Below, in pieces: positions 1 through 19,794 of a DNA stretch of 43,900 bases. A program made the translations under genes and the position numbers. This stretch comes from Escherichia phage slur05. The notes below the pieces were generated by a model, which did not search any database, was not told the DNA's origin, and worked only from the letters and a program-made list of their open reading frames with translations. The stretch lies in sequence record NC_028901.1; one strand, given 5' to 3'. Positions within the stretch are counted from its first letter, which is position 1. Every line of letters starts with the position of its first letter.

Positions 1-1192
1 GTTCTCATCCCTGCTGGTCGTAGACGGCACCGGACCGGAGAAGGACCGTATTGCCGCGCTTGAGAGCGACGCTAACGTGGTTTGTGTTAACTACGATGTG
101 GTTGAGTGGCTGGTCGACTATTACGGCGATGCGTGGCCCTTTACGGTCGTTGTTGCCGATGAATCGACTAAGCTGAAAGGCTATCGTAGCAAGCAGGGGA
201 GCAAGCGCGCCCGCGCACTGGCAGCGATTGCACATAAACACGTCAAGCGCTGGATTAACCTGACCGGCACACCAGCGCCAAACGGGCTAAAAGACCTGTG
301 GGGGCAGACGTGGTTTGTCGACGGTGGCGAACGACTCGGCAGTAGTTATAAGGCATTCACCGATCGCTGGTTCATTAGCAAGCCTGTTAAGCCTGGAAGC
401 TTCACGATGCAGCACGCCCCGCTAAAGAACTCCGAGAAAGAAATACAACAACGCCTGTCTGACGTATCACTAACCGTTGACGCGGCTGAATACTTCGGAT
501 GCGACAAGCCAATCTATACGCCGGTTGTTGTGGACCTGCCGAAGAAAGCCCGCAAGATCTACGACCAGTTTGAAAGCGAGCTATTTGCCGAACTGGAAAG
601 CGGAACAGTGGAAGCGGCGAACGCGGCATCGAAGACAATTAAGTGCCTTCAGCTTGCATCCGGGGCCGTGTATAAGGTGGATGAAGACGGCGAACGGACC
701 GACAAGTGGGTGAAGATTCACGACGCGAAGCTGGACGCGCTGGAAAGTATCGTGGAGGAGTTGAACGGTGCGCCGTTGCTCGTTGCGTATCAGTACAAGC
801 ATGACCTGGCACGTCTTAAGAAGAAATTTCCGCACGGCGTTGCGCTGGGTAAAGGTAAGCAGGGCAATAAGGATATGGAAGCGTGGAACAGAGGCGAGAT
901 CCCCATCATGTTTGCGCACCCGGCATCGGCGGGCCACGGCCTTAACTTGCAGGACGGCGGTCATCACCTGGCAATCTTCTCCGATACCTGGAACTTTGAG
1001 CACTTTTCGCAGATCGTTGAACGTATCGGGCCGGTTCGCCAGATGCAAGCAGGACACCCCCGTCCGGTATTCGTCTACATTATCCAGGCGCGCGGAACAC
1101 TGGACGAACTGGTCGCCGAGCGTCGCGACAGTAAGCGGGATATTCAGGACGACTTGATGGAATACATGAAAGCTAAAAAGGCGCGCAAATGA
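1..1192 (+). CDS. SNF2-family helicase, C-terminal part (5' end outside window)
   Basis: Frame is open from base 2 with no upstream stop, so the gene starts before the window. Translation shows SNF2 motifs: VVADEST (DExx box), LTGTPAPNGLKDLW (motif III), GLNLQ and QIVERIGPVRQ (C-terminal helicase motifs). Confidence 0.75.
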   Translation, partial: FSSLLVVDGTGPEKDRIAALESDANVVCVNYDVVEWLVDYYGDAWPFTVVVADESTKLKGYRSKQGSKRARALAAIAHKHVKRWINLTGTPAPNGLKDLWGQTWFVDGGERLGSSYKAFTDRWFISKPVKPGSFTMQHAPLKNSEKEIQQRLSDVSLTVDAAEYFGCDKPIYTPVVVDLPKKARKIYDQFESELFAELESGTVEAANAASKTIKCLQLASGAVYKVDEDGERTDKWVKIHDAKLDALESIVEELNGAPLLVAYQYKHDLARLKKKFPHGVALGKGKQGNKDMEAWNRGEIPIMFAHPASAGHGLNLQDGGHHLAIFSDTWNFEHFSQIVERIGPVRQMQAGHPRPVFVYIIQARGTLDELVAERRDSKRDIQDDLMEYMKAKKARK

Positions 1193-1884
1193 CAATCTGG
1201 TCACTGTTTGACGGCAGCGGCTTGATGATTGAGCGTGCGGCTGAGATGGGGCATAAGTGTTATTGCTTCAACTACTCCGAAGCCGATCACGGGTCTTACC
1301 TTGACTACCGGATTTATGGTCGCGGAATCCGGTATCGCAATGAGTTTATCGATCTGGACTTTGTAGACCGTGCGATGAATGGCGATTTCGGTACGCCAGA
1401 TATCATCTATGCGTTTCCTCCGTGCACGGATCTGGCAGTGAGCGGCGCGCCAGCTTTCCCGCGCAAACGTGCAAAAGACCCCGCCTTTCAGCTTAAGGCG
1501 GTGCGCACCGCGAAGATCGCCGCTTACCTGGGTGACTTCTTCGAAGTGCCATATATGATTGAGAATCCGCGCAGTGTGCTTTCCACCCAGTGGCGCAAGC
1601 CGGATCACTCGTTCGACCCGTGGGAGTATGGGGGGTATCTGCCGGAGGATGACGTACACCCGCTCTTCCCGGAATACATCAACGCCCGCGATTCATATCC
1701 GAAGCTGACTTGCTTATGGACCGGCAACGGCTTCCGTATGCCAGAGAAGAAACCTGTTTTCGTTGAAAAAGGGTACTCGAAACAGTATAGTCGCCTCGGT
1801 GGTAAATCCGCTCGTACAAAATTAATCCGCTCACTCACTCCGCGCGGCTTCGCGATAGCGGTTAACGAGGAAAATTTAAAATGA
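1189..1884 (+). CDS. Mini C5-cytosine methyltransferase-like protein (231 aa)
   Basis: ATG overlaps the helicase stop (ATGA). Ordered C5-MTase-like motifs: LFDGSG (motif I), FPPCTD (PC catalytic motif), IENPR (ENV-like), RSLTPRGFA (motif IX-like). Too short to carry a normal target-recognition domain. Confidence 0.45.
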   Translation: MTIWSLFDGSGLMIERAAEMGHKCYCFNYSEADHGSYLDYRIYGRGIRYRNEFIDLDFVDRAMNGDFGTPDIIYAFPPCTDLAVSGAPAFPRKRAKDPAFQLKAVRTAKIAAYLGDFFEVPYMIENPRSVLSTQWRKPDHSFDPWEYGGYLPEDDVHPLFPEYINARDSYPKLTCLWTGNGFRMPEKKPVFVEKGYSKQYSRLGGKSARTKLIRSLTPRGFAIAVNEENLK

Positions 1885-2204
1885 ACGCTACATACGAAAC
1901 CATCGATTTTTCGGTCGCAATGACTAACCAGCTATTCACCTACGACAGCAAAACCGGAGTCATCCGTCTGAAGTCCGCCGGCTGCAAGATTGGCAACATC
2001 AATACTGCCGACGGCGGAACACGTATCGAATGCAACGGAAAGACGCTGTCTGGCGCACGCGTGGCGTGGATTATTGAGACGGGCAATACAATCCCTCCAG
2101 GCTTCGCCGTTGTGTGCCGCCAGCGCACACCAGGGCACTACGGCAACCGAATCAGCAATCTGTATTTGGTAGACGTTGCACGCGACCCTAACTTTTATGC
2201 GTAA
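1881..2204 (+). CDS. HNH_3/homing-endonuclease-like protein, probably degenerate
   Basis: ATG overlaps the previous stop. Pattern IECNGKTLSGARVAWIIETGNTIPPGFAV...GNRISNLYLV resembles HNH_3 proteins, but the expected DH/HN catalytic residues are replaced. Confidence 0.3.
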   Translation: MNATYETIDFSVAMTNQLFTYDSKTGVIRLKSAGCKIGNINTADGGTRIECNGKTLSGARVAWIIETGNTIPPGFAVVCRQRTPGHYGNRISNLYLVDVARDPNFYA

Positions 2205-2238
2205 ATTGGTTGCATAATTAGATTGGTTGCATTATCTT
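2205..2238 (+). promoter_or_regulatory. Promoter-like element: tandem ATTGGTTGCAT boxes, TTGCAT-17-TATCTT
   Basis: ATTGGTTGCAT at 2205-2215 and 2222-2232; -35-like TTGCAT 2210-2215, -10-like TATCTT 2233-2238. Confidence 0.4.
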
Positions 2239-2284
2239 AAGGGTGTCCGGTTGGACGCCCTTTTTAATACCTGGAGACAACACG

Positions 2285-2749
2285 ATGAAAATTTTACAAG
2301 AAGAGAAAAATTACTGGGCCGCGCAATGCCTCGAAGCCCGCGAACAGGCCGAACGTGTTAGCGCGCTGGCGGACACCTACCTGGCGAGCTATGAAGGCGA
2401 GGAGAAGGCGCGCAAGGAATTAGAGGAGCGCTTCGAACTGCTGTATGAGTTGATGGGTATTATGCAGCGCACCGGGTACACAACCTCCGTCGCGCTAAAC
2501 CGCATCACTGCCGAAGGTCTGCGCGAGCATTGCAAACGGGCCGAGGCGTACGTGCGCCCCAAAGGTCGCCAGTCTAAGATCGACCGTAAAGACCTGGTAC
2601 GTATGGCATGGCGCAACCCCACAAACGGCAAATTCTACCCGGATGCGCGCCCTTTAGGTGTGTCGGAGACGCAGCGATTGCAGCGAATCCTGAAAAAAGG
2701 TGACAAGATTGCCCTGTACGCGATAGATCCAGATCATGCAGAAGAGTGA
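2285..2749 (+). CDS. Hypothetical protein (154 aa)
   Basis: ORF with GGAGA 7 nt upstream of ATG 2285; preceded by promoter-like tandem ATTGGTTGCAT boxes; predicted helical/coiled protein. Confidence 0.5.
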   Translation: MKILQEEKNYWAAQCLEAREQAERVSALADTYLASYEGEEKARKELEERFELLYELMGIMQRTGYTTSVALNRITAEGLREHCKRAEAYVRPKGRQSKIDRKDLVRMAWRNPTNGKFYPDARPLGVSETQRLQRILKKGDKIALYAIDPDHAEE

Positions 2750-3245
2750 GCAAAAAGATGGCTGGCGCACGCCGCCAGCTTTATTTAAACCACTGCGTCG
2801 GAAGTACCGATTCCGTTACGATATGGCGGCAAGCGATGCCAACCACCTGCTACCGCGTTACTTCACGGCGGAGCACAGCGCGCTTGATGTGGACTGGGCA
2901 GAGTTGAAAGGGTGGAAGTGGTGCAATCCGCCGTACTCCGATCCGCTGCCGTGGGTAGAGTGCGCTGCGCACGGACGCCGGACCGTCATGCTACTGAATC
3001 AGGACACGTCGACGAAGTGGGCGAAGCTGGCCAGGAAGACTGCAAACCTGATTATTTTGCTGGACTGGCGGATCCGGTTTATACACGCCGTCACCGGTAA
3101 GGTCGGGCCGAGCAACAACAAGTGCCAGCAATTGATAATCTTTGAAGAAGTGCCGCCAAACGGCAGCGCACAAATCGAAATAATGAGCGAAGGTGAATTA
3201 AATGAATATCTTAGTCGTCGACCGAAGTCCTCGCGTCGTGGATGA
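2736..3245 (+). CDS. Phage Dam-family N6-adenine DNA methyltransferase
   Basis: N-terminal WRTPP and the NPPY motif (CNPPYSD) typical of small phage N6-adenine methyltransferases; start overlaps the upstream gene. Confidence 0.65.
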   Translation: MQKSEQKDGWRTPPALFKPLRRKYRFRYDMAASDANHLLPRYFTAEHSALDVDWAELKGWKWCNPPYSDPLPWVECAAHGRRTVMLLNQDTSTKWAKLARKTANLIILLDWRIRFIHAVTGKVGPSNNKCQQLIIFEEVPPNGSAQIEIMSEGELNEYLSRRPKSSRRG

Positions 3246-3423
3246 AATAATTAAACGCTACCAGGTTTTCCCTGGAAATAAAGTAAGGCGCGCAAGCCAA
3301 CCTCATCAATTGCTGGGCCTTGACCTAACTGGCTGGCTTGTCATGACGGCGCGTTGCCATCTTGTGTGCGACGCATTCTCGGCCCGTATTGTACGTGAAA
3401 ATTTAATGGCGGAATTAAAATGA
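3202..3423 (+). CDS. Hypothetical small protein (73 aa)
   Basis: ORF overlapping both neighbours by a few bases, consistent with translational coupling; no recognisable motif. Confidence 0.3.
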   Translation: MNILVVDRSPRVVDEIIKRYQVFPGNKVRRASQPHQLLGLDLTGWLVMTARCHLVCDAFSARIVRENLMAELK

Positions 3424-3890
3424 AACTACTGATTTGCGATTTAGATGGCGTTATCAACGGGTCAAGCAGTGTGCGCGACGACCTAGTTCCGGGGATCAAG
3501 ACTAAATCAACGTTTTGGGCGAAGTGGCATAAGGCCCACGTCCGCGAAGACATTAATTATGACATGCTGCCGTTATTGCGCATGTACGCTAAACAGGGCT
3601 TCGACATTGCGTACCTGTCAAACCGCCAGTCAGATTGCTGGGAGTCAACGAAAGAGCAATTGGATAGATTCCCGAAAGGTCGTCTGTTCTTACGCCATAT
3701 GCTTGATGACACGCCGCCTCCAGAGTACAAGGCCCGTTCCGTATTTGGCCTGGTGTGCTATGCAGAAGTTAACGAACTGGTCATCATTGACGACTGCGCG
3801 AAGAACATCGCCGCCATCAAACGGGCGTGTGAAGAACTGGTCCCGCATATTTATTCTGTGAATCTTGCAAAATTCACTTGCAACCAATAA
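3420..3890 (+). CDS. HAD-superfamily hydrolase/phosphatase-like protein
   Basis: N-terminal DxDGV motif (LICDLDGVING) and a C-terminal aspartate motif (VIIDDCAKN), as in HAD phosphatases. Confidence 0.5.
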   Translation: MKLLICDLDGVINGSSSVRDDLVPGIKTKSTFWAKWHKAHVREDINYDMLPLLRMYAKQGFDIAYLSNRQSDCWESTKEQLDRFPKGRLFLRHMLDDTPPPEYKARSVFGLVCYAEVNELVIIDDCAKNIAAIKRACEELVPHIYSVNLAKFTCNQ

Positions 3891-3906
3891 TGCAACCAAC
3901 TATATT
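3878..3906 (+). promoter_or_regulatory. Sigma70-like promoter TTGCAA-17-TATATT
   Basis: -35 TTGCAA 3878-3883, 17 bp spacer containing TGCAACCAA, -10 TATATT 3901-3906; upstream of gene 3953-4474. Confidence 0.5.
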
Positions 3907-3952
3907 AACCACATCGGGAGGCAATACCGCCTCCCCTAAAAGGAGACAAACC

Positions 3953-4474
3953 ATGAAAGCATACGAATACTGCAAAAACGCCGCCACCACTATGGAACAG
4001 CGCGGGAAAGAAAACGGCTATGACAACGCGAAAGACGAACGCAGCGCTAAACAGGTCGCCGCCGTGTTTAACGCGCTTACCGGGCGCAACCTTACCGAGC
4101 AAGAAGCCTGGACCTTCCTGATCTGCCTGAAGCTGGTGCGCCAGCACCGTAAGCACCAGGAAGATAACATCGTGGACCTGGTAGCATATGCCGCACTGCT
4201 GGGTGAGTCTTACATGACCGTGCATGACGAGATTCAGATCGATACAACGGCAGCACAATTCGACAGCCTCAAAGGCTGGCCCATCTCCACCGGCGGAACG
4301 TGGCGTCCTTCGGCATCTGCGGGCAAGACTGTCAAAGCCGCCGATTTCGGCGTCGTAGCCCAGGACGTCCAGCCTATTGTCGTGCTCACTGGCGAGGATG
4401 GGTCCAAAATCCTCATGACGCCGGAAGATTTCCGTAATATGGAAAAAACACTGGTGACTGGCGCACTTAAATAA
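3953..4474 (+). CDS. Hypothetical protein (173 aa)
   Basis: AAGGAGA RBS before ATG 3953; upstream promoter TTGCAA-17-TATATT (3878-3906); followed by a UUCG-loop hairpin at 4483-4498. Confidence 0.5.
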   Translation: MKAYEYCKNAATTMEQRGKENGYDNAKDERSAKQVAAVFNALTGRNLTEQEAWTFLICLKLVRQHRKHQEDNIVDLVAYAALLGESYMTVHDEIQIDTTAAQFDSLKGWPISTGGTWRPSASAGKTVKAADFGVVAQDVQPIVVLTGEDGSKILMTPEDFRNMEKTLVTGALK

Positions 4475-4482
4475 TGCTAATA

Positions 4483-4498
4483 GCGGGCTTCGGCCCGC
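4483..4498 (+). other. Stable UUCG-tetraloop hairpin without a U-tract
   Basis: GCGGGC-TTCG-GCCCGC directly after the stop of gene 3953-4474; no T-run, so more likely a stability/processing element than a terminator. Confidence 0.35.
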
Positions 4499-4516
4499 AT
4501 CAATGAAGGATCCACA

Positions 4517-5092
4517 ATGTACGGCGAATACGAAATATCTGGTAAACAATTCCACCTGGCGGCAATGATAGCAAGCATCGAGTTTGACCAGTGGAGATAC
4601 AAGTCTGACGCGTGCAAGCAAAGCCGTCTTGTCGGTGTGCTGGGCGAGATGTTTGCAGGCATGTACCTCGAAGGGCAGGCGGGCGGGCGTAGCTGTATTC
4701 CACAAGGTTTGCTAATGCGTACCGGCATGTTTAGCGCTAACACTATCGACCGCGGCGATATTATCATGGTCGGCAAGCGCAAGGTTAAGTCCGGCCCCGA
4801 CTACAAAGAACACATGATTGATGCCGTCTGGACATATGAGGTTAAGGCCGCAAGCGGCATACGTCGCGGACTGGTAGAGGCGCGTTGCGCTCGCGAGTAT
4901 CTCACTCGTCGAGTTGCCGGTGTTATTCTGGTGGGGGTGTCGTTAGGGCCGCAAAGCGCGCATGGCGTGATTGAGGACATCGCAGAGCCATACGTGATTG
5001 TTAATGACTGGCCTTTAGTGGAAGTGGAAGGAAAGGAATACTACGAAAGCCCCCTGGTGCGGCGCAAAATGGACTGGGAAAACTCAAACTAA
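4517..5092 (+). CDS. Hypothetical protein (191 aa), possible PD-(D/E)XK-like nuclease fold
   Basis: ORF ending at a bidirectional terminator; segment PDYKEH...IDAVWTYEVK loosely resembles a D...(D/E)xK nuclease motif. Weak. Confidence 0.35.
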   Translation: MYGEYEISGKQFHLAAMIASIEFDQWRYKSDACKQSRLVGVLGEMFAGMYLEGQAGGRSCIPQGLLMRTGMFSANTIDRGDIIMVGKRKVKSGPDYKEHMIDAVWTYEVKAASGIRRGLVEARCAREYLTRRVAGVILVGVSLGPQSAHGVIEDIAEPYVIVNDWPLVEVEGKEYYESPLVRRKMDWENSN

Positions 5093-6805: not shown

Positions 6806-6826
6806 AGCTGAATCCTCTTAAATTGG

Positions 6827-6854
6827 TTGCAATCCTGGTTGAGCGGTGTAATAC
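6827..6854 (+). promoter_or_regulatory. Promoter-like element TTGCAA-16-TAATAC for the lipoprotein cassette
   Basis: ATTGGTTGCAA at 6822-6832 followed 16 bp later by TAATAC. Confidence 0.35.
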
Positions 6855-6885
6855 TAAAACTCAACCAAATATAGGGGATGATACC

Positions 6886-8101: not shown

Positions 8102-11100
8102 TTACCACGTCCCGACTTTCACCCTCCCCCCGCCAGGTAACGGCACGTTTACGCCTGTCTTGTCGATCGTCACGGTCCCACCAGAAAACCCGAAGTTACC
8201 CGATGTGGCGTACAGGTTGCCGCGGACCGTTACGTTGTTCAATTCCGCGTTACCCGATTTAGGCAGGTTCCACCCTGACGACCCCGCAACGAAGTTATTA
8301 GACCGCAGCGTGTCCGTGATCTGTGCGAAGTTAATGGACGCGTTCTTGATTCGTGCCGTGTCGATGTACACCTGTCCTCCGTCGACGATGAACGCGGACG
8401 AAAGCGACCCATTAGATGGGTGCATGATGTAGAACTGGTCGGCTTTGAACGCGATACGAGATTTAACCGCGCTGCCCGACGTTACAACGGAAAGCTGCAT
8501 ACCCGCATCATAGTAAGTACCGTTATACGTCACACCCGCCTTAAGGCTGTATGTGGCGCTACCACCGGAGTGGTTAAACGAGGACGTCATCTTCTGCTCG
8601 ATCGCGGCGGACTGCTGACCGAACTTAGCGGCAACAGTTTGTTGGTACTGGGCGAACGCTTGCTCGTGCGTGCTTTGCGCGGTCTGCAACGTGTGGATTG
8701 CCGCTTCCGCATCGTCAAGGCGAGTACCGATCAACGTTTCCAGTTGCGCTACCGCCTGGTGGGCATCTGCCGCCACGTTATACGCGACCGAGATTTCTGC
8801 ATAAATCCCCTTGTACTCGGCGCGGGCGTTAAACAATTGCTGTGCGTCGGTGAGCATAGCCTCATAAATGCCTTGCGGCATGGTGTCGATCGCTTCCTGG
8901 AAGCGTTTACCGTCCTCAGAAGTCAAGAACTCGTCGTCCAGCCCATTCATATACTCGTCAACATTGTCACTCACCTGCCCTTCAAACGGGTCCGACCAGT
9001 CCGACAGGTTGCCGATTTTATCCGCTACACGGGCGCGCAACTGCTGATAGATGCCGAACTCCAGCGACGTTTGCGCATACTCCGACCCCGGGTATGGGAC
9101 GTTGGTTAGGAATTTCCATTCCGTTTCACCCGTCTTGCGAACTTCAAGCTCGGTGTACGAAATATCCGTCGCGGCGTTATTGTGGTTCCACTTCCACAAA
9201 ATCTGGTGAAGGCCCGAAATCGCGTTGGTGATGATAGGCGCGTTAAGACCGCCGAGACGACCTTCCACCGGCGTGATGGCAGAAGACACCCACGGGGATG
9301 AAATCTCGCCCATACCGATCGCGCGGACGCGTGCCTGATAATTGCCTGAAAACACGTTAGGGATGTGCGCGCCGTTCGATGCCGTACGTGGGATGTTTAC
9401 CCAGTCGTTACCCCACTGGATTTCCATATTCTGCAAGCTGGTGCGTCGCCACTGGATTTCATACACCACGGCATCTTTCACCGGCGGGAATACAATATCA
9501 ACGTTGGTGATTAGCTGGCCTTGCGATGAAATCTGCGACGGGGTGATGGTCACGGATTCCGGCCCCTTCATTACACCGTCGGGCACTTGCGTAAAGATGC
9601 CTGGGTCAAGGCGAGCGCCATTATCAACGGCATCATATTTGCTATCGTTGTATTCGATCCCGCGCACTGAAAAAGTGCTGGTAGAGTCGTCATATTCCAG
9701 GTCGGTGATGCGGAACTTCTGCAACTGGATATCGTTGCCATCGACGCAAAACGGCTGATCAGGAATCGGGTCGGCGTCCAGTGCGGTTTTTAGCGTAACC
9801 TTGTTGCCGTTGACGCTGGCAATCTCGCGAGTCTCCACATTACCGCTATCGGTGCGTACCAGGAATTTATCACCTGGGCGGAACGTGATTTCGCTGTCCG
9901 TGTTAAGCACGGTACGCGTGCCAGGGTCCGACAACAGGCGACCGCCGCGTGTCTCGAAGCCGCCAGAAAAGTTTGTATCGGCGATCGCGACTACGCTACC
10001 CGGAATAAAGAAAAGTCCCTCCATGCCAACCTTAAAGCTAACTTGCTGGTCAAGCTGGTTGGAGATTAGCGCCCAGTGCCCGCGGCGTTGCGCTTCAGAT
10101 TCACGCGTACAGCCGATCGCCGTGATGTCCAGACGGTTAATCTTATGGCGGCGTACCAGTTCGACACGCTGCCCCGTAGCAATGGCATCTTCATAGTGGT
10201 TCTTCGGGTTGCCGTATGCTACCGCGAATGTGGAATATCGAGTTTTCTGGCTGCCGGACGCGTAGTCGAATCGACCATCAATGACCGAGGCGTTGGTGAT
10301 GGTGTGCGATACCGCTGCGACCGGCTGGTCACTGACGATATTCAACATCTGATTTCCCCACCAGGTCATACCGGCAAAGATAGCGGCTAAATCCTTAAGC
10401 ACGGTCCAGGCATCCGTCTGTGACTGAATGTACATATCATTCTTAAAGCGGATTTCTCGACCACCGTTGCCGTCGCTGACCAACTGATCGCAGCGCTGCG
10501 CAATCTGGTAGAGCGCGTATCGGTTTAGCATTTGCGGTTTGATACGCCGACCGAGGCCGAAGCGCTCAGTAATACAAATATCGTACCAGTGCCACGCAGG
10601 GTTATCCGTCCATGCGCGTTTAAACGTGCCGTCCCAGTCCCCGGAATAGGTATGATTGATCGGGTCGTAGTTGTTCGGTATTAGAACTTTGCGACCTTTG
10701 CACTTAATGGACACGCGCGGGATGTTCTGGAACGCTTTGGCGTCGAACTCCACAAACAACAGCGCGGTTAGCGGGTAACGCAGGCGGGCGTCAATAATCT
10801 CAGTGATGGACTGCACCCGGATATCATTAACCACTTTCGCCGATGTGGAGTCTGCCGTTATGCGGTGCACCTCCACGCGCCAGCCGGTGTTAACGTTCGG
10901 AGGTAATTCGATGCGGTGGTCGCGCTCATATAGCGACATTGTTTTACCAACGGCGGCGAATCTGAACTCACGCGGGTCGGCGTTATCCGTATACACAACT
11001 ATCTTATAGTCGATGCGCCCGCCCACCAGGTCGCCGTTGTCTTCGTTGGTGTACAGGGCCGGAATGCCGATTCGAATGCGCACGGCGTCAAGACTGGTGT

Positions 11101-11452
11101 CGTTAATCTGGCGCACCCACGGCGTGCCGTTTTCCAGTTTTACGCCTACGGATTGCTCACTTTCCACCGCTGAAAATCCGTGGATCACGTCCTGGTGCTG
11201 TGTGCCTGGGCGGAACTCCACGCGCGCGCCGGGGAAGTTTTCCGACAGGTCGGCGTTCTGGATCGGCGTGCCGTCCAGATATACACGCTGCCGTAATTCG
11301 CTGTCGCTGGTAATACTTTCGAATTCCCCTTCCCCTAGCGCAAGCAAGATGCGAATTTTAGCCAGGGAATGCAGGCTATCCGGCGTTTCCTGCGGGGTGT
11401 GCTGTTTGCCGCCGCCGCCTTTATGCCCAGTGACGTCGTAGATAATCGTCAT
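8102..11452 (-). CDS. Tail tip/central fiber protein (lambda J-like)
   Basis: 1116 aa; N-terminus (GGGGKQHTPQETPDSLHSLAKIRILLALGEGE) resembles the lambda J N-terminus; follows the I-like gene. Confidence 0.75.
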   Translation of the reverse strand: MTIIYDVTGHKGGGGKQHTPQETPDSLHSLAKIRILLALGEGEFESITSDSELRQRVYLDGTPIQNADLSENFPGARVEFRPGTQHQDVIHGFSAVESEQSVGVKLENGTPWVRQINDTSLDAVRIRIGIPALYTNEDNGDLVGGRIDYKIVVYTDNADPREFRFAAVGKTMSLYERDHRIELPPNVNTGWRVEVHRITADSTSAKVVNDIRVQSITEIIDARLRYPLTALLFVEFDAKAFQNIPRVSIKCKGRKVLIPNNYDPINHTYSGDWDGTFKRAWTDNPAWHWYDICITERFGLGRRIKPQMLNRYALYQIAQRCDQLVSDGNGGREIRFKNDMYIQSQTDAWTVLKDLAAIFAGMTWWGNQMLNIVSDQPVAAVSHTITNASVIDGRFDYASGSQKTRYSTFAVAYGNPKNHYEDAIATGQRVELVRRHKINRLDITAIGCTRESEAQRRGHWALISNQLDQQVSFKVGMEGLFFIPGSVVAIADTNFSGGFETRGGRLLSDPGTRTVLNTDSEITFRPGDKFLVRTDSGNVETREIASVNGNKVTLKTALDADPIPDQPFCVDGNDIQLQKFRITDLEYDDSTSTFSVRGIEYNDSKYDAVDNGARLDPGIFTQVPDGVMKGPESVTITPSQISSQGQLITNVDIVFPPVKDAVVYEIQWRRTSLQNMEIQWGNDWVNIPRTASNGAHIPNVFSGNYQARVRAIGMGEISSPWVSSAITPVEGRLGGLNAPIITNAISGLHQILWKWNHNNAATDISYTELEVRKTGETEWKFLTNVPYPGSEYAQTSLEFGIYQQLRARVADKIGNLSDWSDPFEGQVSDNVDEYMNGLDDEFLTSEDGKRFQEAIDTMPQGIYEAMLTDAQQLFNARAEYKGIYAEISVAYNVAADAHQAVAQLETLIGTRLDDAEAAIHTLQTAQSTHEQAFAQYQQTVAAKFGQQSAAIEQKMTSSFNHSGGSATYSLKAGVTYNGTYYDAGMQLSVVTSGSAVKSRIAFKADQFYIMHPSNGSLSSAFIVDGGQVYIDTARIKNASINFAQITDTLRSNNFVAGSSGWNLPKSGNAELNNVTVRGNLYATSGNFGFSGGTVTIDKTGVNVPLPGGGRVKVGTW

Positions 11453-12066
11453 TCGTTCAAGTCCTCGGTTACGATTCCGGCTGAAATAATAGCGCCGCCG
11501 ATCTCACGCTCGCCCCATAATACACCAAGCGCCGTGCCTTGCGCTGTTGTATTCACTGGCCCGCCGAACGCGTACGACGCTTTGTTATCCACGTCCTGCC
11601 GGGTCTGCAATCCTTTCGGCTGCGGCGACAGCAATTGCATAGCACCGCCCAGCGCAAGCGACATGCCAAACGAAAATGTAGCCGTACCGATAGCGGCAGC
11701 GGTTGCAGCCGAAGCCCCGAAAGCGGCAGTAGCAAGTCCGCCAGTATAGAACGACGCCACTACAATCGCGACACCCGCCAGCAATTGGCCCAGTCCGCTT
11801 TTTGCCCCCGTCATAACCGGCGCGATGGTAACGACGCGGTCGCCGTGGAACTCGCCAAGCTCATCATAACCGGTCATCGTGTGGTTGCCTTTGCGCACCT
11901 TGAACATCATATTGTCCAGGTGGGCCGACATTAAAAAGTCTTGTAACCCTGGCAACTTCACACACAGGCCGGTGATGCCTTCTCCCGGTGTGAAGCAGTC
12001 CAGCTTATGCACTTTACCAAAACGACGCCCTAAGACGCCGTACAATTTAAACGTGGTCATTGCCAT
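11449..12066 (-). CDS. Tail assembly protein (lambda I-like)
   Basis: 205 aa at the lambda I position; Gly/Ala-rich C-terminal half. Confidence 0.55.
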   Translation of the reverse strand: MAMTTFKLYGVLGRRFGKVHKLDCFTPGEGITGLCVKLPGLQDFLMSAHLDNMMFKVRKGNHTMTGYDELGEFHGDRVVTIAPVMTGAKSGLGQLLAGVAIVVASFYTGGLATAAFGASAATAAAIGTATFSFGMSLALGGAMQLLSPQPKGLQTRQDVDNKASYAFGGPVNTTAQGTALGVLWGEREIGGAIISAGIVTEDLNE

Positions 12067-12797
12067 TCTGTGATATTCCCTGTTAGGTCTTTATGACGTA
12101 CCCATTTAACCACATTGTCGCGGAAAAATCCTGCCCGGAAGGGAATCACGCTCGACAGGCTGCCGTAGATATGGTGTAGTAGTTGGTTGCCCGGAAGGAA
12201 TATCCCAGCGTGGTTAGGCACAGGCGCGCTAATCTGCATGATGACCATTGCCCCCGGCGTATTCTCCTCGCATTCCCTGAAGCCAGCACCGTACCAATTA
12301 TCCATATACAGATTTTCGCCTGTCTCCCACCAGTTATACGGCACGCGGAAGTCTGGCAGGTTTACACCCTGCTTTTTGTGCCAGTCCATGACGAGGCCAT
12401 AACAATCTGTAATTCCGAGAACAAATCGGCGGCCTACCAGCGGCGGGTCTTCAGGGTCGATCTCGATAAAGTCGCCATATTCGTTAGTGATGGTCCAGAC
12501 TACGCCGCTGCCGTTGCATCCGTTAACGTCGCCAAGTGAGGGTGTAAGCTCTCGCTGGCCTGGATGCGAGTGGACTACTCGCACGACGTCGCCCATATCC
12601 TCGGCATCCATCCAGGCCATATCACTAATCGTGAATGCGTCTCTGCGTGAGCGCACGCCGGTCGGGTCTTCGAATACGTTCATGCACGGGACAAATACTT
12701 GTTTGCGGCCCACCATGACAACCAGGCCACAGGCTTCTTCAGGCAGACATGCCGCAACGTGCGCGGCGATATCGCTTTTAACCTTTTTCGTTAACAT
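12057..12797 (-). CDS. Tail assembly protein (lambda K-like, JAB/MPN plus NlpC/P60)
   Basis: HSHPG motif (JAB/MPN metalloprotease-like) and Cys/His features; position between L-like and I-like genes. Confidence 0.6.
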   Translation of the reverse strand: MLTKKVKSDIAAHVAACLPEEACGLVVMVGRKQVFVPCMNVFEDPTGVRSRRDAFTISDMAWMDAEDMGDVVRVVHSHPGQRELTPSLGDVNGCNGSGVVWTITNEYGDFIEIDPEDPPLVGRRFVLGITDCYGLVMDWHKKQGVNLPDFRVPYNWWETGENLYMDNWYGAGFRECEENTPGAMVIMQISAPVPNHAGIFLPGNQLLHHIYGSLSSVIPFRAGFFRDNVVKWVRHKDLTGNITEWQ

Positions 12798-12799
12798 GG

Positions 12800-13588
12800 C
12801 TACCCCTTGATTAATTTGGACCCAGGAAAACCACCGAAGTCCAGCACCGCAGCTTTAGGGTCCGCAAGCCCTTGCCCAAAACGAAGATAGCAGTCGGACA
12901 AACAGCCGCCGCATCGGTCCATATTCATTGCAATGACTTCATTACCACGCTCGTCGTAATACTTGATGCCGGGCTTCGCAAGGTTCCACGTGCAACCGTC
13001 CCCGCTGGCGTACTTCCCATTTAACGCCCATTCGCACATGTTCATGATTTGGCGACGCGGGACGACCTGCCCTTCCATATCCGCAGGAGAGGATAGTGCG
13101 AAGGTGATTTGCTTGCCAGGATTGCGCCCGACCTGCGAGTCAATGTAATACTCCTGAACTCGTTTCTGCGTCGGGTCTGGATCTGTCCCGTTGTCCAGGA
13201 ACTTCGCGAACGTATCAATGATCTCAACCTTCGCGCCCAGTAGCTGGTCGTGATTCAGCGACAGCCGGGTTATTATGCCGCCAATATCGACAATAGTTAG
13301 CTGCGGTTCTGCTGCCGTTGATGTGGAGAAGTTAAGGCCGGACAAATCGAAGGGCCAAAATTCGAACTCCTGCCCGCCGAAGAAGATGGATTTAGGTTTT
13401 AGCTTGTCCTCGTCACCACCTGCGGCGGCAATATCCTCGGCAGTGTGCGGAATAAAGCAATAGTGAAAATAGTGATGGCCCGCGCCGATCGCGCCGTCGC
13501 CTGGTTCCACGTCCTGCGCATCAATGTGAATCAGGCGAACGCGTCCCGATGGGTCAAAGCGCGTCGCCTCGCGATATAGTTTATTCAT
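12800..13588 (-). CDS. Minor tail protein (lambda L-like)
   Basis: 262 aa, position and Cys-rich C-terminus (CGGCLSDC) consistent with L-like minor tail proteins. Confidence 0.55.
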   Translation of the reverse strand: MNKLYREATRFDPSGRVRLIHIDAQDVEPGDGAIGAGHHYFHYCFIPHTAEDIAAAGGDEDKLKPKSIFFGGQEFEFWPFDLSGLNFSTSTAAEPQLTIVDIGGIITRLSLNHDQLLGAKVEIIDTFAKFLDNGTDPDPTQKRVQEYYIDSQVGRNPGKQITFALSSPADMEGQVVPRRQIMNMCEWALNGKYASGDGCTWNLAKPGIKYYDERGNEVIAMNMDRCGGCLSDCYLRFGQGLADPKAAVLDFGGFPGSKLIKG

Positions 13589-14184
13589 CTTACGAATCCA
13601 ATAGCTGTCTTAAGGGTGGCGGACACAGTTGCCGTGTAGTGCCCGTTGTCAGTGTACGACAAGCTCGAACGCTCGACCACGAATAAACCTGTTTCGCCAT
13701 CCGGCGCGGTGACAACAAACGGCTTGACGAAGTGACCGCGAAGAAAGTTGTAAACCAGTTTAGGGTCGCACCACTTGTCAGTAGTAAGTCCGATGAATTG
13801 CACGGGGAACTGTTTCGTTTCGGCGTTCGGGCCGTCCGCGATGTTCTGACCGTAACCGTTACCAAATTGCAATTCCTCGGACCGGAAAGCTAACTGCACG
13901 TCCCCGCCGCCTTGCAATTGCATGTGCCAGTAATATGGCCATTCGTTTGACCGCGGGTCGTGCGCTTCGATTAGCTCATAAGCCACACCGGCTTTTGTCG
14001 GACCTGCCCAGTTATCCGCCAGGGTGATGACGGTGTTAGAGTTGAATGCTGCAATTTTGCCGGTGTAGTCGTTGCCGTCGATGCGGGCAAATACGCGGAC
14101 CTTCCCAATCTCGCTCAGGAACGCCGTCCCCGCGCCCGTTACGGTCTTACTTCCTTTCGTTAGTGTGATTGTACCTTGTGACAT
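13585..14184 (-). CDS. Minor tail protein (lambda M-like)
   Basis: Start refined to the ATG at 14184 (MSQGTITL...); directly downstream of the tape-measure gene. Confidence 0.5.
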   Translation of the reverse strand: MSQGTITLTKGSKTVTGAGTAFLSEIGKVRVFARIDGNDYTGKIAAFNSNTVITLADNWAGPTKAGVAYELIEAHDPRSNEWPYYWHMQLQGGGDVQLAFRSEELQFGNGYGQNIADGPNAETKQFPVQFIGLTTDKWCDPKLVYNFLRGHFVKPFVVTAPDGETGLFVVERSSLSYTDNGHYTATVSATLKTAIGFVR

Positions 14185-14219
14185 AAAAAAGCCCCCACGT
14201 TGTAGTGAGGGCCATTTTA

Positions 14220-16862
14220 TCATCGTTTGTAAAGTACACCACCCGGTTTCGTCGCCTTCACGATCTCGGCCTTGACCGACTCGGTGATTTGCTTCCCGAA
14301 CGCCTGCGCGGTGCGCGGGTCTGGTCCGCTAACACTGGTATCCGTCTTACCGGTCCCCATGTTAACGTTGGTCGTTACAATCATCCCCCCGCCTACACCG
14401 GCAGCGGCGACTCCAAGTTTGCCGTCCGGGCCGCGCTTCAGTGGCATGATGGCTTCGGGTCCGGCCTCACCCATCAATCCTGCGCCCTTAGCGAACGCCT
14501 TGACGCCATAACTGAAAAAGGTTGGCTGGCTTACCACCTGCCCCGAATAGGCCGCGAGATTGCCCCCTGCGTACGCTCCGCCGTCCGCATTCTTAGTGAG
14601 GCCGGAGAAGATAGCGCCGAACAATCCGTTTTTGCCGCCGTCGCCACCGAAAGCGCTAACGATGGACTTGAACGCCTGCGAGGTAGCCAGCTTTATTAAT
14701 TCGCTCAGAATGGACTTAACCATATCTTTTGCGTTCAGCTTGCCAGCCTCGAAAAACTCGTTCATCGTGTCCTGCATAGCGCCGAACGTGAATTTTGTGA
14801 GTGACGTCATCTGCGTGTAGCCGCTACCCATTTCATCCACGCTATCCTTAAGCCCGCGGCTGAAGCCATCCCATAGCGAGGCGTTAGCACCGGTCTGTGC
14901 TTCCTGCACTTCGCGCAGCTTAGACACCGCCAGGTCAATATCGGTATCGTTAGCACCAACGCGCTTAAGGCGGTCAATCAGCTGTAATTCTTCGCGCAGG
15001 TTAGCCGCTTCGCGAGTGGAAAGCGCATAGCCCGCCGCGGTGGCTTTTAGCTCGGCGTTCTGGTTCTTAACGAAGGAGTCGATCTGCGCGTGCGCCTTGA
15101 CCTGCTTCTCTTTCGCGTCCAGCAATTTGGCTTCTTCGACGATCTGCTCGCGTACTTCCTTCACGCGTCCGAATTCGACCATCTGCTGCTTTTCTGCTGC
15201 CGTTAGTGCTCTTTCTTTGCTTGCTGCGATTAACTGCTCATTATCCGCGATCAGCTTGTTTAGGGCCGCCTGCGCGCGTTGCGTGCGGGTCTGCGTCGAT
15301 GCGTTGGCTTCGATCTGCTTGCCGGATTCTCGAAGCTGGGCCAGTTCGCTCCGTGCTACTTCCAGCATTTTCAGCCCGGCATCGACTCGAACAGCGGCGG
15401 CCTTCTTCGGGGCGGGGTCTTTGTACCGCTCGTTGACCTGCTTCACCGCCTCGGCAAGCTCTTTCTCGTCAATCACGCCGCGCTTATTAAGCAAATTGAG
15501 GCGGGCGATCTCGTCGGCGCGCCTCTTCGCGTTGGTTGCGTACTCCTTCTCAAACGCGGCGCGGTCGCGGGCGGTGCGGTTTGCCTCTTCGTTCGCCTTT
15601 GCTGCTTCGTCAGCGGCACTTGCGTTGTCTCGCTCTGCACGGTTGCGCAGGGTGAGCGACGCCACTACTTTTTCCTGGGCTACCAGTTCGCTGTAAAGCA
15701 TGTTAATACGCGCTTTCTGCGCTTCGGTCATCACCCCACCGGCAGCGTTTACCGCTTTCATCTCGGCATAGTAAGCCGTGGTCAGTCGCTGCAATGATTC
15801 ACGCGCTTTCATCTCTGACTCATTCGAGGACTGCGCGCGCCCGACATCCAGGATGGCATCCCACATAGATTTAGCTGCCGATATAACGACGTTCATCGAC
15901 CGCTCAAGCGTACCCATGTTGGACTTGATCTCATTGGTCATAGTGGTAAACGACGCTGCGGCTGTTTTGTTAGCCAGCGCCACCGCTTCGGTTTCGCGAC
16001 CAGCCGTCACTAGTGACTGCACCTGCTGGATCTGCGCTTCGTTTACGACGTGATACTTATCCGCCAGCGCACGCAGTCCGCCAACGGGGTCGGTTGACAG
16101 CTTCGCCACCGCCGCCACCACATCCTCGATCGGCTGGCTGGACACCTTCGCAAAGTCATTAACTACCTTAGCCAATGCGCCGAAGTCACCACCCGCTTTC
16201 ACACCCGCCGCCGCCAGCGCCTGGATTGTGTCACGCGTCTTGCGGAATGATCCGCCCATGCGCTCGGCGTTCTCGGATAACACCAGGATCTGGTTTGCAG
16301 TGAGGCCGGAAATGTTACCTGACAGCGCCAGCGTCTTGTTAAGCGCGGCGACCTGGTTCTCTGCGCGGGACGTAATTGCCACGCCCACGCCTAACGTTGC
16401 CGTTACGGCGGCGAGGCCGATCCCTACTGGGCCGAGGAAGCCCGCAACATAACGCAGCGTGTTACCCAGTCCACCGAACGCCCCAGTTAGCTGCGGTAAC
16501 TGCTGAAGCATGACGCGGTGAACCGGCATCCCCATCTCAAGCGTTACCGCAATATCCTGTAGCTGGAATGCGGCGTTACGCGAGGCAAAGCCCAGGTTTT
16601 TAGTCGACATCCCTAACCTGTTGGCGAGTCGCTCCTGTTTAGTCATGCCATCGGCGGCGCGCTGCGATTCGTTTGCCAGCTTTTCCATTCCGCCCGCGGC
16701 GTCACTCGTCACCTTTTTGGATTTGCCGAGGGTGTCGTTTAATTTCTTAACCTTGTTTTCTGTGTTCTCGGATTTCTGTGCGAAGGAGTCCAGCACAGTA
16801 TTTGCCGTTCTGATTTGTGCAACATCAGCCTTTAGCGTGATGCCTGCTGCCTGATCTGCCAT
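14220..16862 (-). CDS. Tail tape measure protein
   Basis: 880 aa, long Ala/Glu/Lys-rich coiled coil and Gly-rich C-terminal region; between chaperone and minor tail genes. Confidence 0.8.
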   Translation of the reverse strand: MADQAAGITLKADVAQIRTANTVLDSFAQKSENTENKVKKLNDTLGKSKKVTSDAAGGMEKLANESQRAADGMTKQERLANRLGMSTKNLGFASRNAAFQLQDIAVTLEMGMPVHRVMLQQLPQLTGAFGGLGNTLRYVAGFLGPVGIGLAAVTATLGVGVAITSRAENQVAALNKTLALSGNISGLTANQILVLSENAERMGGSFRKTRDTIQALAAAGVKAGGDFGALAKVVNDFAKVSSQPIEDVVAAVAKLSTDPVGGLRALADKYHVVNEAQIQQVQSLVTAGRETEAVALANKTAAASFTTMTNEIKSNMGTLERSMNVVISAAKSMWDAILDVGRAQSSNESEMKARESLQRLTTAYYAEMKAVNAAGGVMTEAQKARINMLYSELVAQEKVVASLTLRNRAERDNASAADEAAKANEEANRTARDRAAFEKEYATNAKRRADEIARLNLLNKRGVIDEKELAEAVKQVNERYKDPAPKKAAAVRVDAGLKMLEVARSELAQLRESGKQIEANASTQTRTQRAQAALNKLIADNEQLIAASKERALTAAEKQQMVEFGRVKEVREQIVEEAKLLDAKEKQVKAHAQIDSFVKNQNAELKATAAGYALSTREAANLREELQLIDRLKRVGANDTDIDLAVSKLREVQEAQTGANASLWDGFSRGLKDSVDEMGSGYTQMTSLTKFTFGAMQDTMNEFFEAGKLNAKDMVKSILSELIKLATSQAFKSIVSAFGGDGGKNGLFGAIFSGLTKNADGGAYAGGNLAAYSGQVVSQPTFFSYGVKAFAKGAGLMGEAGPEAIMPLKRGPDGKLGVAAAGVGGGMIVTTNVNMGTGKTDTSVSGPDPRTAQAFGKQITESVKAEIVKATKPGGVLYKR

Positions 16863-16926
16863 TATGCAGTCCCCTTTTTTATGCAGTTGCCGATGGATAT
16901 TGTATCAGCTATTTCAAAACAAACCT

Positions 16927-17246
16927 TATTCAGTCTCAGACGAGGGGGGCCACTGACCCCCGTCTAGTCTGAAAGACTGGGGTGCTGTCCCGCTGTCCCG
17001 ATCGGCTGAAAACCGCGGCAGCACTGGCGGGGACGGGGTGCTGTCCCGCTTTGTCCCGCCTCTTGTTTGTCCCGCTTTCTGTCCCGTTTGTTTTATGCAC
17101 GAAAACCGAATACGTATGCACTTTTGTGGGGTGGGACAAAACGGGACGTCCCGCTTGTCCCGCTTTTTATTATGCAATGGAAGTGAGTAGGTATGCAGTT
17201 TCACAGGGGTGGGACAAAACGGGACGTCCCGCCTGTCCCGCTTCAT
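16927..17246. repeat. Structured non-coding repeat element, copy A: hairpin, GTCCCGC iterons and two GGGACGTCCC palindromes
   Basis: Core 16927-17100 is ~85% identical to 33700-33870; bulged stem-loop AGACGAGGGGGGCC...CCCCCGTCT, at least 6 GTCCCGC iterons, sub-repeat GGGTGGGACAAAACGGGACGTCCCGCNTGTCCCGCTT at 17127-17167 and 17207-17245. Confidence 0.8.
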
Positions 17247-17937
17247 TATGCGGGGTTCTGCTGCGCCATCTCATCAAGCGCGATTCGTTCCATTAGCTTG
17301 ATATCTTTAAACGCACGCTGCTCGTTTTCGATACCGTGCATCTTAAATAACCACTCCAGCACGCCGTAGTCGATGCCGTATGCGCCACCAAATCCGGTGC
17401 GCCATTGCGTGGCGCAATCTGTGAAGACTGCGACTATCTTCGCGTTGTCAGGCCACAGCGCAACAGGTGGACAAACATCTTCGGGGGCCGCACCCCATAA
17501 ACTTGCGGCTAAATCTTCGGAGGGTGGCGGCGGGCCATAAAAGCGTCGCGCCGCCTCAATTAGTTTTTTTCACGCAACCCCATCAGTTCGAGATAGTACG
17601 ACGTGTGGAACACACCGAACGCGCGTGGATAGTTGACCACCAGGCGGCGGACGTTCTCCGCGTTAAATTCGTCCGGCAGATTCCAGCCTTCTGCGACGTG
17701 CATGATGGCCTCGACCATAACGTTAAAGCCGTCCGGGTCATTGTCGTCATATTCCGACAACTTGCGTTCGGTGTCCTGCATGGTCTGCGAAAATTCGTCG
17801 ATAGGGCGGTGGCGGACGGTGAAAGTCATCTTCCCCGGCTCGTTCTCACCAGGGCGCGGGATCTCAATCGGCAGCTTAAAGGTCGGCTTAGGGTCAAGTG
17901 TAAATAGTGGTGCTTTAGCCATTGTAGTATTCTCCAA
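17247..17937 (-). CDS. Tail assembly chaperone G-T fusion made by -1 frameshift
   Basis: Minus-strand heptamer A_AAA_AAC (plus 17563-17569) at the end of the G-like ORF; the -1 frame stays open for ~105 codons (LIEAARRFYGPPPPSEDL...QQNPA) to a stop at 17247-17249. Confidence 0.6.
17560..17922 (-). CDS. Tail assembly chaperone (lambda G-like)
   Basis: Start refined to MAKAPLF with GGAGA RBS; acidic ~120 aa protein; ends at slippery heptamer A AAA AAC next to its stop codon. Confidence 0.65.
   Translation of the reverse strand: MAKAPLFTLDPKPTFKLPIEIPRPGENEPGKMTFTVRHRPIDEFSQTMQDTERKLSEYDDNDPDGFNVMVEAIMHVAEGWNLPDEFNAENVRRLVVNYPRAFGVFHTSYYLELMGLREKN
17563..17569 (-). other. Programmed -1 ribosomal frameshift site (A AAA AAC) for the G-T chaperone
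   Basis: Slippery heptamer in the last codons of the G-like ORF with an open -1 frame downstream (17247-17562). Confidence 0.6.
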
Positions 17938-17961
17938 TAAAAAAGGGGCCGTGCTGGCCCC
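17938..17961 (-). terminator. Rho-independent terminator/attenuator between major tail and chaperone genes
   Basis: Stem GGGGCC/GGCCCC with loop GTGCT, followed on the minus strand by a T6-7 tract. Confidence 0.6.
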
Positions 17962-17991
17962 ATATTATCACTCGCTATTTAAGCGACCAAA

Positions 17992-19793: not shown

Positions 19794-19794
19794 G

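Follow-up and report, generated by a model that had tools for sequence, protein, structure and literature searches.

Positions 2205–2238 of sequence record NC_028901.1, from Escherichia phage slur05, are flanked by the HNH gene g21 and the ligase-like gene g20 and hold two direct copies of a short word, ATTGGTTGC, which is found inside almost every promoter of this phage and also beside its likely replication origin. All positions refer to the whole stretch of DNA that was analysed, 43,900 nucleotides, which is called the window here. In this locus, the first copy gives the −35 hexamer TTGCAT (2210–2215), the second fills the spacer before TATCTT (2233–2238), and the pair is followed by a terminator-like hairpin at ~2240–2262. 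The site is conserved in four genomes, with core identities of 1.00 and 0.99 across 12–13 distinct genomes. We propose, with a probability of about 0.5, that a protein encoded by the phage and binding DNA sequence-specifically recognises (A)TTGGTTGC(A) as its asymmetric site. The motif would be a protein-recognition site of the operator type, and not a promoter element read by the polymerase.

The window is 100% identical to Escherichia phage slur06 (LN881731.1) across two compared stretches and is a circular permutation of slur06, reverse-complemented, with exact matches for 54 of the 58 coding sequences in the record. Gene annotation was transferred from LN881731.1, giving a window that is 91.7% coding and 8.3% non-coding. 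slur06 is an HK578-like virulent siphovirus of the genus Dhillonvirus. The + strand block from 37020 to 43900, which runs on into 1–5092, carries the early and replication genes, including those for an exonuclease, a single-stranded DNA (ssDNA)-binding protein, DNA polymerase, a VRR-NUC nuclease, an SNF2 helicase and methylases, as well as the ligase-like gene. The − strand blocks (8102–22717 and 23756–36617) carry the tail, head and terminase genes, the lysis cluster, the helicase-primase gene g38 and the gene for the helix-turn-helix (HTH) protein g37.

The core TTGGTTGC occurs in 22 exact copies in the window, of which 18 are intergenic and two fall in the final 3 and 16 nt of genes (3880 and 43650); the other two, deep in coding DNA at 12183 and 15532, are probably chance copies. 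Core density is 4.95/kb in intergenic DNA versus 0.099/kb in coding DNA, a 50-fold difference (Fisher p = 1.7e-16), and Markov simulations of the intergenic DNA gave a mean of 0.23 core copies. No other 8-mer of the window is as enriched in intergenic DNA. TTGGTTGCA is present in 11 exact copies against 0.50 expected, and ATTGGTTGCA, with at most one mismatch, in 17 against 2.9 expected. One-mismatch variants of TTGGTTGC show no enrichment in intergenic DNA, and the exact word is therefore required. The base before the core is A in 15 of 20 copies and the base after it is mostly A or C. The motif has 50% G+C, is asymmetric and non-palindromic, and its 20 copies are spread over 12 intergenic loci. 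An earlier sequence-only reading of the window had listed positions for the motif and placed it in non-coding stretches; all of these positions hold the motif, and the comparison of intergenic with coding DNA rules out an equal density in the two.

The copies are also conserved. Four complete Dhillonvirus genomes have 18–22 copies at orthologous places, and among 10–14 distinct Dhillonvirus genomes core identity is ~1.00 at nearly every site, compared with 0.56–0.95 for the 30-nt flanks. To judge from these identities, purifying selection is acting on the word itself. The copy at 3892 is inverted yet perfect (GCAACCAAtaggTTGGTTGC) in phages WFI, SO-1 and YD-2008.s. The spacing of paired copies varies (12, 13 or 14, 16, 17, 23 or 31), and at the g54 promoter the two copies are 13 bp apart in slur06 versus 14 bp in its relatives. 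A flipped copy and drifting spacing around an invariant core indicate that double-stranded DNA is recognised site by site, and argue against an RNA signal. In the searchable literature there is no prior description of the motif, and nothing relevant on promoters or transcriptomes of Dhillonvirus or HK578.

The motif loci of the window and the promoters at them, most assigned either by a sigma70 consensus scan or by eye, are as follows.

2205–2238, + strand: g20 promoter, assigned by eye; two direct copies, cores 2206–2213 and 2223–2230.
3878–3906, + strand: g16 promoter TTGCAA-17-TATATT, consensus scan; two − strand copies, cores 3880–3887 and 3892–3899, the first forming the −35 hexamer and the second in the spacer.
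6822–6869, + strand: promoter of the lipoprotein gene g13, assigned by eye, between the divergent genes g14 and g13; an exact copy (core 6823–6830, identity 1.00 in 12 genomes) gives the −35 TTGCAA (6827–6832), followed by a 16-nt spacer and TAATAC (6849–6854); a one-mismatch inverted copy, TTGGTTGA, is at 6861–6868 on the − strand.
22808–22842, + strand: g54 (Nmad5) promoter TTGCAA-17-TATATT, consensus scan; two direct copies, core 22822–22829 in the spacer and core 22835–22842 across the −10/+1 region, the latter part of a near-palindrome TTGGT-TGCAC-ACCAA.
30265–30302, − strand: g47 promoter TTGACT-18-CATACT, consensus scan, downstream of a terminator and upstream of a small unannotated open reading frame (ORF) and g47; two + strand copies, reversed relative to transcription, core 30288–30295 in the spacer and core 30265–30272 just past the −10.
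33043–33071, − strand: g40 promoter, assigned by eye; one + strand copy, core 33062–33069 (identity 1.00 in 10 genomes), whose TTGCAA (33066–33071) is the −35, with a 17-nt spacer and TACATT.
33501–33539, − strand: g39 promoter; two copies, cores 33532–33539 and 33501–33508, the upstream one giving the −35 TTGCGT, with a 17-nt spacer and TGC-TATATT, and the second overlapping −10/+1.
33623–34000, no strand: four ATTGGTTGCC copies, cores 33623–33630 (+) and 33904–33911, 33939–33946 and 33993–34000 (all −).
36794–36823, + strand: rightward early promoter TTGACA-18-TATCAT; one reversed copy, core 36808–36815 (− strand), in the spacer.
39809–39846, + strand: promoter of the ssDNA-binding protein gene g30, TTGACC-17-TAAATT, consensus scan; two reversed copies, core 39823–39830 in the spacer and core 39839–39846 just past the −10.
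43649–43682, + strand: promoter of the zinc-ribbon gene g25, assigned by eye; an exact copy, core 43650–43657, gives the −35 TTGCTG, a one-mismatch copy, TTGGTCGC (43662–43669), is in the 17-nt spacer, and TATAGT (43677–43682) follows.

Most sigma70-like promoters in the intergenic DNA hold one to three copies within the core promoter. The motif is within the span of 5 of the ~8 intergenic matches of the sigma70 scan (3878, 22808, 36794, 39809 and, on the − strand, 30302) and of 0 of the coding matches. The early promoter at 36794 is the strongest consensus match in the window (11/12), and the HK578 record, whose promoters are generic sigma70, annotates a promoter at the corresponding place. 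Intergenic promoter-like sites without the motif exist, for example at 18776 ahead of the major tail gene, and the structural block is otherwise free of copies. By eye, 10 of the 12 loci fit one of four placements, the exceptions being the ATTGGTTGCC copies by the iterons and the half-site palindrome of g37. At −39 to −32 the copy is forward and its TTGC starts the −35 hexamer (g20, g13, g39 and g25); at −33 to −26 it is reversed and TTGCAA is the −35 hexamer (g16 and g40); at −29 to −14, in the spacer, and at −8 to +3 (g54, g39, the g47 leader and g30), both orientations are found. Relative to transcription, five loci are co-oriented and four reversed. Because the copies overlap the polymerase footprint at variable positions, this layout resembles that of operators, and not that of a polymerase-read element or an upstream activator site.

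The link that the sequence-only reading drew between the motif, sigma70-like promoters and an ori-like region is borne out, with copies in core promoters and six around the iterons. Both TTGCAA-17-TATATT promoters that it named, as cases where a copy overlaps or abuts the −35 hexamer, are in the consensus scan; at 22808, however, the −35 hexamer is outside the motif copies, which lie in the spacer and over −10/+1. Its first suggestion, a promoter upstream element, does not fit, since the copies are located within the core promoter and vary in both position and orientation. UP elements are A/T-rich and lie at −40 to −60, as against ~−39 to +3 for the motif. Its second suggestion, the binding site of a phage regulator, is consistent with the invariant core, the flippable orientation and the lineage variants at orthologous places described below.

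Outside Dhillonvirus, TTGGTTGC is enriched in the intergenic DNA of Klebsiella phage VLCpiS11a (Guernseyvirinae), in the context atGTTGGTTGCAAt, with 10 intergenic versus 3 coding copies in a genome that is 7.9% non-coding. It is also enriched in seven metagenomic relatives of VLCpiS11a, whose polymerase is ~65% identical to that of the window. The placements recur at orthologous positions, namely within the spacer of the ssDNA-binding protein gene's TTGACA promoter, 5′ of the zinc-ribbon gene, after the helicase-primase gene and in the divergent early region. A related 49-kb sequence with the same gene order, L210, has 0 copies of TTGGTTGC and ten of TTGGCCGC with the same flanks (atgTTGGCCGCaa), at orthologous sites in the ssDNA-binding protein promoter spacer, 5′ of the zinc-ribbon gene and in the ori-like region. 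The promoters orthologous to that of g30 carry the motif or its variant in the spacer, as TTGACA...GCAACCAA in VLCpiS11a and TTGACA...GCGGCCAA in L210. Contigs L293 and L294 have CTGGTTGC/TGGTTGC in the same two-copy promoter layouts; one of these reads TTGCAA-17-TATATTGGTTGCAC, a design identical to that of the g39 promoter, whose architecture recurs in the unrelated contig L294. In the clade of TS6 and Hafnia phage TS33, there are only 2–3 copies, of TTGGCTGC, all by the helicase-primase gene. The motif is absent from 16 other relatives at 55–70% polymerase identity (Jersey-like phages, TS6 and TS33) and from 45 more distant ones. Positions that are kept while the central bases change by lineage are the signature of a co-evolving DNA-binding protein, and such variants at orthologous sites are hard to square with direct reading by a conserved host polymerase.

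Copies of TTGGTAGC in contig L141 and of TTGGCCGC in Jersey-like loci were set aside as coding or chance copies, and when viral contigs were scanned for pairs of copies close together, most of the matches were tandem repeats in coding DNA. Contig L111 (IMGVR_UViG), from an unrelated phage, has twelve (c)TAATTGGTTGCATCC within 430 bp (2750–3180), in both orientations, in an iteron-like array. An ORF with an HTH-looking segment beside this array was dropped, having no Pfam match and no similarity to g37.

The best candidate for the binding protein, held tentatively, is the product of the zinc-ribbon gene that recurs next to the motif.

43714–43887, + strand: g25, 57-aa protein; CxxC...CxxC zinc ribbon followed by a basic C-terminal helix.

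Every lineage that carries the motif or one of its variants has a member of the g25 family; the Jersey-like phages and the more remote motif-negative relatives have none. In four lineages, a motif copy lies directly 5′ of the g25 gene. Residue 35 of g25 varies together with the site: Ala (R-A-x-C) goes with TGGTTGC in Dhillonvirus, the VLCpiS11a-like phages, L293 and L294, and Asn goes with TTGGC(C/T)GC in L210 and the TS6/TS33 clade. The g25 of VLCpiS11a is nearer to that of Dhillonvirus than to that of L210 (8 versus 5 discordant columns), the opposite of the kinship seen for the polymerase, helicase-primase, ssDNA-binding protein, VRR-NUC and Nmad5. The AlphaFold model of g25 shows the zinc ribbon and a 19-residue basic helix (pLDDT 80). 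Longer phage proteins have the same zinc-ribbon module at their N-terminus, and it is matched by PHROG families of the HNH and endonuclease VII types; Pfam gave no Ogr_Delta match for g25 at E <= 0.1. A search for further zinc-ribbon lineages returned only longer proteins with an N-terminal ribbon and added no points of co-variation. More speculatively still, g25 might be a global phage DNA-binding regulator of a new class. In Dhillonvirus and some Guernseyvirinae-like siphoviruses it would read an asymmetric word of 8 bp, both at the origin and at almost all promoters, by a simple, evolvable code in which A or N beside the second zinc knuckle is matched by TT or C(C/T), respectively, in the middle of the site.

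Whatever its identity, a phage protein would bind each copy as a separate site and compete with RNA polymerase. Since the sites overlap the footprint of the polymerase, occupancy would most likely hinder the host enzyme, and may repress or time-gate the early, replication, accessory and lysis-cluster operons. The protein might act on its own operon too, as an autoregulator, and may have a second function in marking the origin region. Of the steps in this mechanism, the sign of regulation is the least secure.

Several observations weigh against the proposal. One repressor on nearly all promoters, including that of the g47, terminase and head genes, leaves late expression unexplained, a problem that would be eased if affinities or site numbers differ between promoters. 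The sigma70 scan gave no more promoter-like sites than were found in shuffled sequence, so the promoter matches serve as a check of consistency rather than as proof; half of the promoters were assigned by eye; and the literature searched holds no mapped transcription start sites for any Dhillonvirus. The link to g25 is drawn from ~6 lineages that are phylogenetically non-independent, the discordance of g25 is small and is similar for the exonuclease gene, and the TS6/TS33 clade has a g25 homologue but so few variant copies. A Foldseek search with the g25 model gave no significant structural relative (best E = 0.75). Two other genes, for the Dam-like methylase g19 and for Nmad5, also co-occur with the motif: both are found in the clades that carry it, and neither in the 16 motif-negative relatives or in the 45 more distant ones. 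It is because of the few, related lineages, the small numbers, the exonuclease discordance and the missing structural relative that g25 is put forward with reserve; what likelihood is left beyond g25 and the HTH protein g37 falls to another protein.

Comparison with known systems places the motif near several of them. The C1 operators of P1 and the gp71 stoperators of the mycobacteriophages L5/Bxb1, its nearest parallels in behaviour, belong to temperate phages, where the binder is the immunity repressor and the sites are 13–17 bp long. They share with the motif a short asymmetric site that occurs ~15–30 times per genome in short intergenic regions, often over promoters, as single, independently bound sites. 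However, L5 stoperators are fixed in orientation relative to transcription whereas the slur05 motif occurs in both, and the slur05 site is shorter (8–10 bp) and belongs to a virulent phage. The genus Dhillonvirus is treated as lytic in the papers found, the slur06 record has no integrase, and a comparison of 37 window proteins with Pfam and PHROGs gave no match to an integrase or CI-type repressor, and to no known transcription-factor family beyond the HTH of g37.

The MotA box of T4 middle promoters is a 9-bp element, fixed at ~−30 in one orientation, which replaces the −35 hexamer and is read by a phage protein. The motif is like it in being a phage-specific 9-bp word that accompanies sigma70 −10 elements in a virulent phage, and unlike it in that position and orientation vary and that the −35 hexamers TTGACA, TTGACC and TTGACT coexist with it. 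DnaA boxes are likewise asymmetric 9-mers in both orientations, found in an origin cluster and at promoters, where position decides the effect; their sequence differs from the motif, and the slur05 ori-like region has separate iterons. The sites of P2 Ogr and P4 Delta are dyads, TGT-N12-ACA, at ~−55, and activating. If g25 binds the motif, the likeness to Ogr/Delta would be that of a tiny stand-alone phage zinc-binding protein controlling many sigma70 promoters; unlike Ogr sites, the slur05 motif is asymmetric and inside the core promoter. Among host regulators, GntR-family proteins of the PdhR/UxuR type have operators TTGGT-N3-ACCAA, and CytR octamers (GTTGCATT) are flanked by CRP sites. Dyads in slur05 have 5-bp spacing only and most sites are single half-sites, as opposed to the 3-bp dyads of the GntR type, and the TT-to-CC lineage variants point to a phage-encoded rather than a host binder.

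The sequence-only reading had named the HTH protein at 36288–36617 as a possible binder.

36288–36617, − strand: g37, 109 aa; long helix and C-terminal HTH (HTH_23 / Sigma70_r4_2).
36632–36646, no strand: palindrome TTGGT-TAATG-ACCAA, read from the sequence, conserved in four genomes.

The motif would then be the operator of a Cro-like protein that is made from the divergent early region and binds TTGGT-containing sites. g37 is the sole clear HTH protein of the genome (HTH_23 and Sigma70_r4_2, E ~2e-6), and its model (pLDDT 84) has a long helix, possibly a dimerising coiled coil, followed by the HTH, which is conserved in all Dhillonviruses, including the divergent allele of HK578; all of these retain the motif. 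The palindrome lies just 3′ of the −10 of the leftward g37 promoter TTGACA-17-TAGTTT, assigned by eye, and similar near-palindromes are found at the g54 and g39 starts, so that g37 may well bind 36632–36646. The palindrome, however, shares only TTGGT, 5 of the 8 invariant bases, with the motif. Moreover, the identical 8-mer is used by VLCpiS11a-like phages and L293/L294-type contigs, while g37 was found only in Dhillonvirus; searches with the HTH profile and the recognition-helix pattern returned nothing in VLCpiS11a-like genomes, which have at the same position an HTH_3 Cro-like protein that is also present in motif-negative clades. Being confined to Dhillonvirus, g37 leaves the shared motif unexplained, and we regard it as an unlikely binder, although it may play a part within that genus. 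A fold search with its model gave resolvase-, LuxR- and IstA-type HTHs as nearest, none significant, and no significant relatives in the PDB.

The motif might instead be primarily a replication-origin element, akin to the DnaA box and bound by an initiator or primosome protein, with the promoter copies secondary (coupling of replication and transcription, or extra loading). Like a DnaA box, the site is an asymmetric 9-mer used in either orientation. Downstream of the helicase-primase gene g38, a non-coding region of 534 bp has six copies (33501, 33532, 33623, 33904, 33939 and 33993), irregularly spaced and in both orientations. They flank a separate, regular iteron at its centre, GCGGGACA, in 6 copies (33750–33852). 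In every clade with the zinc ribbon, copies or variants are found at most ~500 bp from the 3′ end of the helicase-primase gene, and in TS6/TS33 these are the sole copies. Against this, 14 of the 20 copies are elsewhere, each over a promoter-like core, and the iterons differ completely between Dhillonvirus (GCGGGACA) and VLCpiS11a (TTGCGAGT, also the equivalent repeat of L210) while the motif is unchanged. An origin element as the primary role is therefore doubtful. The GCGGGACA repeats themselves are probably the origin iterons, and since they form a separate family, the ori-like label is reasonable yet the motif is not the main iteron there.

The repeat (AA)GCGGGACA has 12 exact copies in the window, intergenic only and all on the − strand, in two clusters, 33750–33852 and 16986–17241, the latter flanked by the genes for the tape measure and the tail chaperone. 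A block of ~150 nt, ending '...cagtctttcagactagacgggggtcag.ggcccccctcgtctgagactgaataa', is common to both clusters. The record of Sodalis phage SO-1 annotates both as related repeat regions and the 33623–34000 stretch as 'region B'. The two clusters resemble the two-part arrangement of P4 ori and crr.

It is improbable that the motif is a core promoter element read by the host sigma70 polymerase, that is, an extended −35 of the form TTGG-TTGCAA. Its TTGCA(A/T) does form the −35 hexamer, 16–17 bp from a −10-like hexamer, at ~7 promoters (g20, g16, g13, g40, g39, g25 and L294), and several copies in VLCpiS11a read TTGCAA-17-TATAGT. Nevertheless, only ~7 of the 20 copies have the fixed orientation and the 16–18 bp to the −10 of such an element; 13 of the 20, of either orientation, fall within the spacer or at the start site, and the 3892 copy flips between genomes. 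In L210, TTGGCCGC at orthologous sites destroys the TTGC of the −35-like TTGCAA and the site is still kept, and an invariant 8-mer that tolerates no mismatch is unlike sigma70 hexamers.

It is very unlikely that the motif is the target of a phage DNA modification by Nmad5 (g54) or the Dam-like methylase g19. Phylogenetic profiling across clades first pointed to g19, Nmad5 and the methylase-like protein g22, and in L293 Nmad5 adjoins the zinc-ribbon gene. Yet both g19 and Nmad5 are present in L210, where the word is TTGGCCGC, and the Nmad5 proteins of L210 and of VLCpiS11a, which has TTGGTTGC, share 89% identity. The motif contains no GATC, and modification leaves the restriction of the sites to promoters unexplained. 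Deletion of Nmad5 leaves the phage viable (PMC11846954), which also counts against it. As binders, Nmad5 and the Dam-like methylase were both rejected, being present in L210, which has no TTGGTTGC, and g22 was rejected as widespread (1,510 phage records); g36 is an implausible sequence-specific binder, being of low complexity with KAKK repeats and acidic stretches. A role of the motif in RNA, as a 5′ leader hairpin or translational enhancer, is scarcely credible, for although the +1 copies at the g54 and g39 promoters would form a 5′-UUGGU...ACCAA hairpin and ACCAA(C/T) recurs just 5′ of several Shine-Dalgarno sequences, copies occur in both orientations relative to transcription, many lie 5′ of the predicted start, and they flip between genomes.

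Some further features adjoin the motif-bearing promoters. Downstream of the rightward early promoter, the ~190 nt at 36830–37019 have an end-to-end homologue in ityhuna, a T1-like phage (Warwickvirus), where the matching intergenic DNA is without annotation. The two share long identical blocks, GATCGAAGTGTCAGGATTCCCAACCGTGA among them, and short pieces of the slur05 stretch match Klebsiella and Salmonella phages. The slur05 stretch is absent from YD-2008.s, belongs to no Rfam family, has an ordinary folding energy (z = +0.8) and shows no conservation of its reading frame. The rightward early operon opens with g36 (37020–37538), whose product is of low complexity, with histone H1-like PAKAKKAPAKGKAKK repeats between long acidic runs. 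This product has conserved counterparts in VLCpiS11a and L210, and may be a nucleoid-binding or DNA-mimic host-takeover protein. Directly downstream of the g47 promoter, the small unannotated ORF, MARKDIWVLAIWTTAAFIGMVICELI (~30154–30237, − strand), is kept in WFI, partly deleted in SO-1 and absent from YD-2008.s. In g40 (32737–32991, 84 aa), the last ~40 residues, which end ...VPVWAKESPLAADGDNMYRYRK, are similar to the C-terminal end of the DNA polymerase encoded by the phage itself, and a tblastn search of relatives with g40 matched at the polymerase 3′ end. g40 could be a decoy or competitor for a partner of the polymerase tail.

Other observations concern the genome at large. The octamer GCTGCCGT occurs in 29 copies versus 2.05 expected, in coding DNA (for example at 11287, 12159, 12507, 13311 and 15196), with a strong strand bias: of the 22 found from 8102 to 36617, the + strand carries 20. 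A related word, ACGGCAAC, has 20 copies in the window. In Klebsiella phage VLCpiS11a and in Hafnia phage TS33, each with 28 copies, GCTGCCGT likewise exceeds expectation ~10-fold. It could be a polar sequence of the Chi type, or its abundance could come from a codon or peptide effect. The exonuclease g32 (38147–39577) of Dhillonvirus is as close to that of VLCpiS11a as the latter is to that of its nearer relative L210 (62 versus 57 discordant columns; L006 and L210 compared), unlike the core proteins, whose discordant-column ratio is ~0.35, which suggests module exchange between lineages. The deposited record LN881731.1 is 44,515 bp long, and its coordinate offsets from the window differ by 44,387; this mismatch seems to reflect a 128-bp terminal redundancy in the record. 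Rfam and tRNA scans of the window gave no matches.

Dhillonviruses are among the most often isolated phages of E. coli, and are used in the BASEL collection, in studies of defence systems and in phage engineering. For this genus, an invariant word at ~12 promoter and origin loci provides a map of transcription units and a handle on a master regulator. The promoters with the motif, together with the operator, would be a ready set of parts for engineering, and the natural variants TTGGTTGC, TTGGCCGC and CTGGTTGC at orthologous sites are a built-in specificity-swap experiment.

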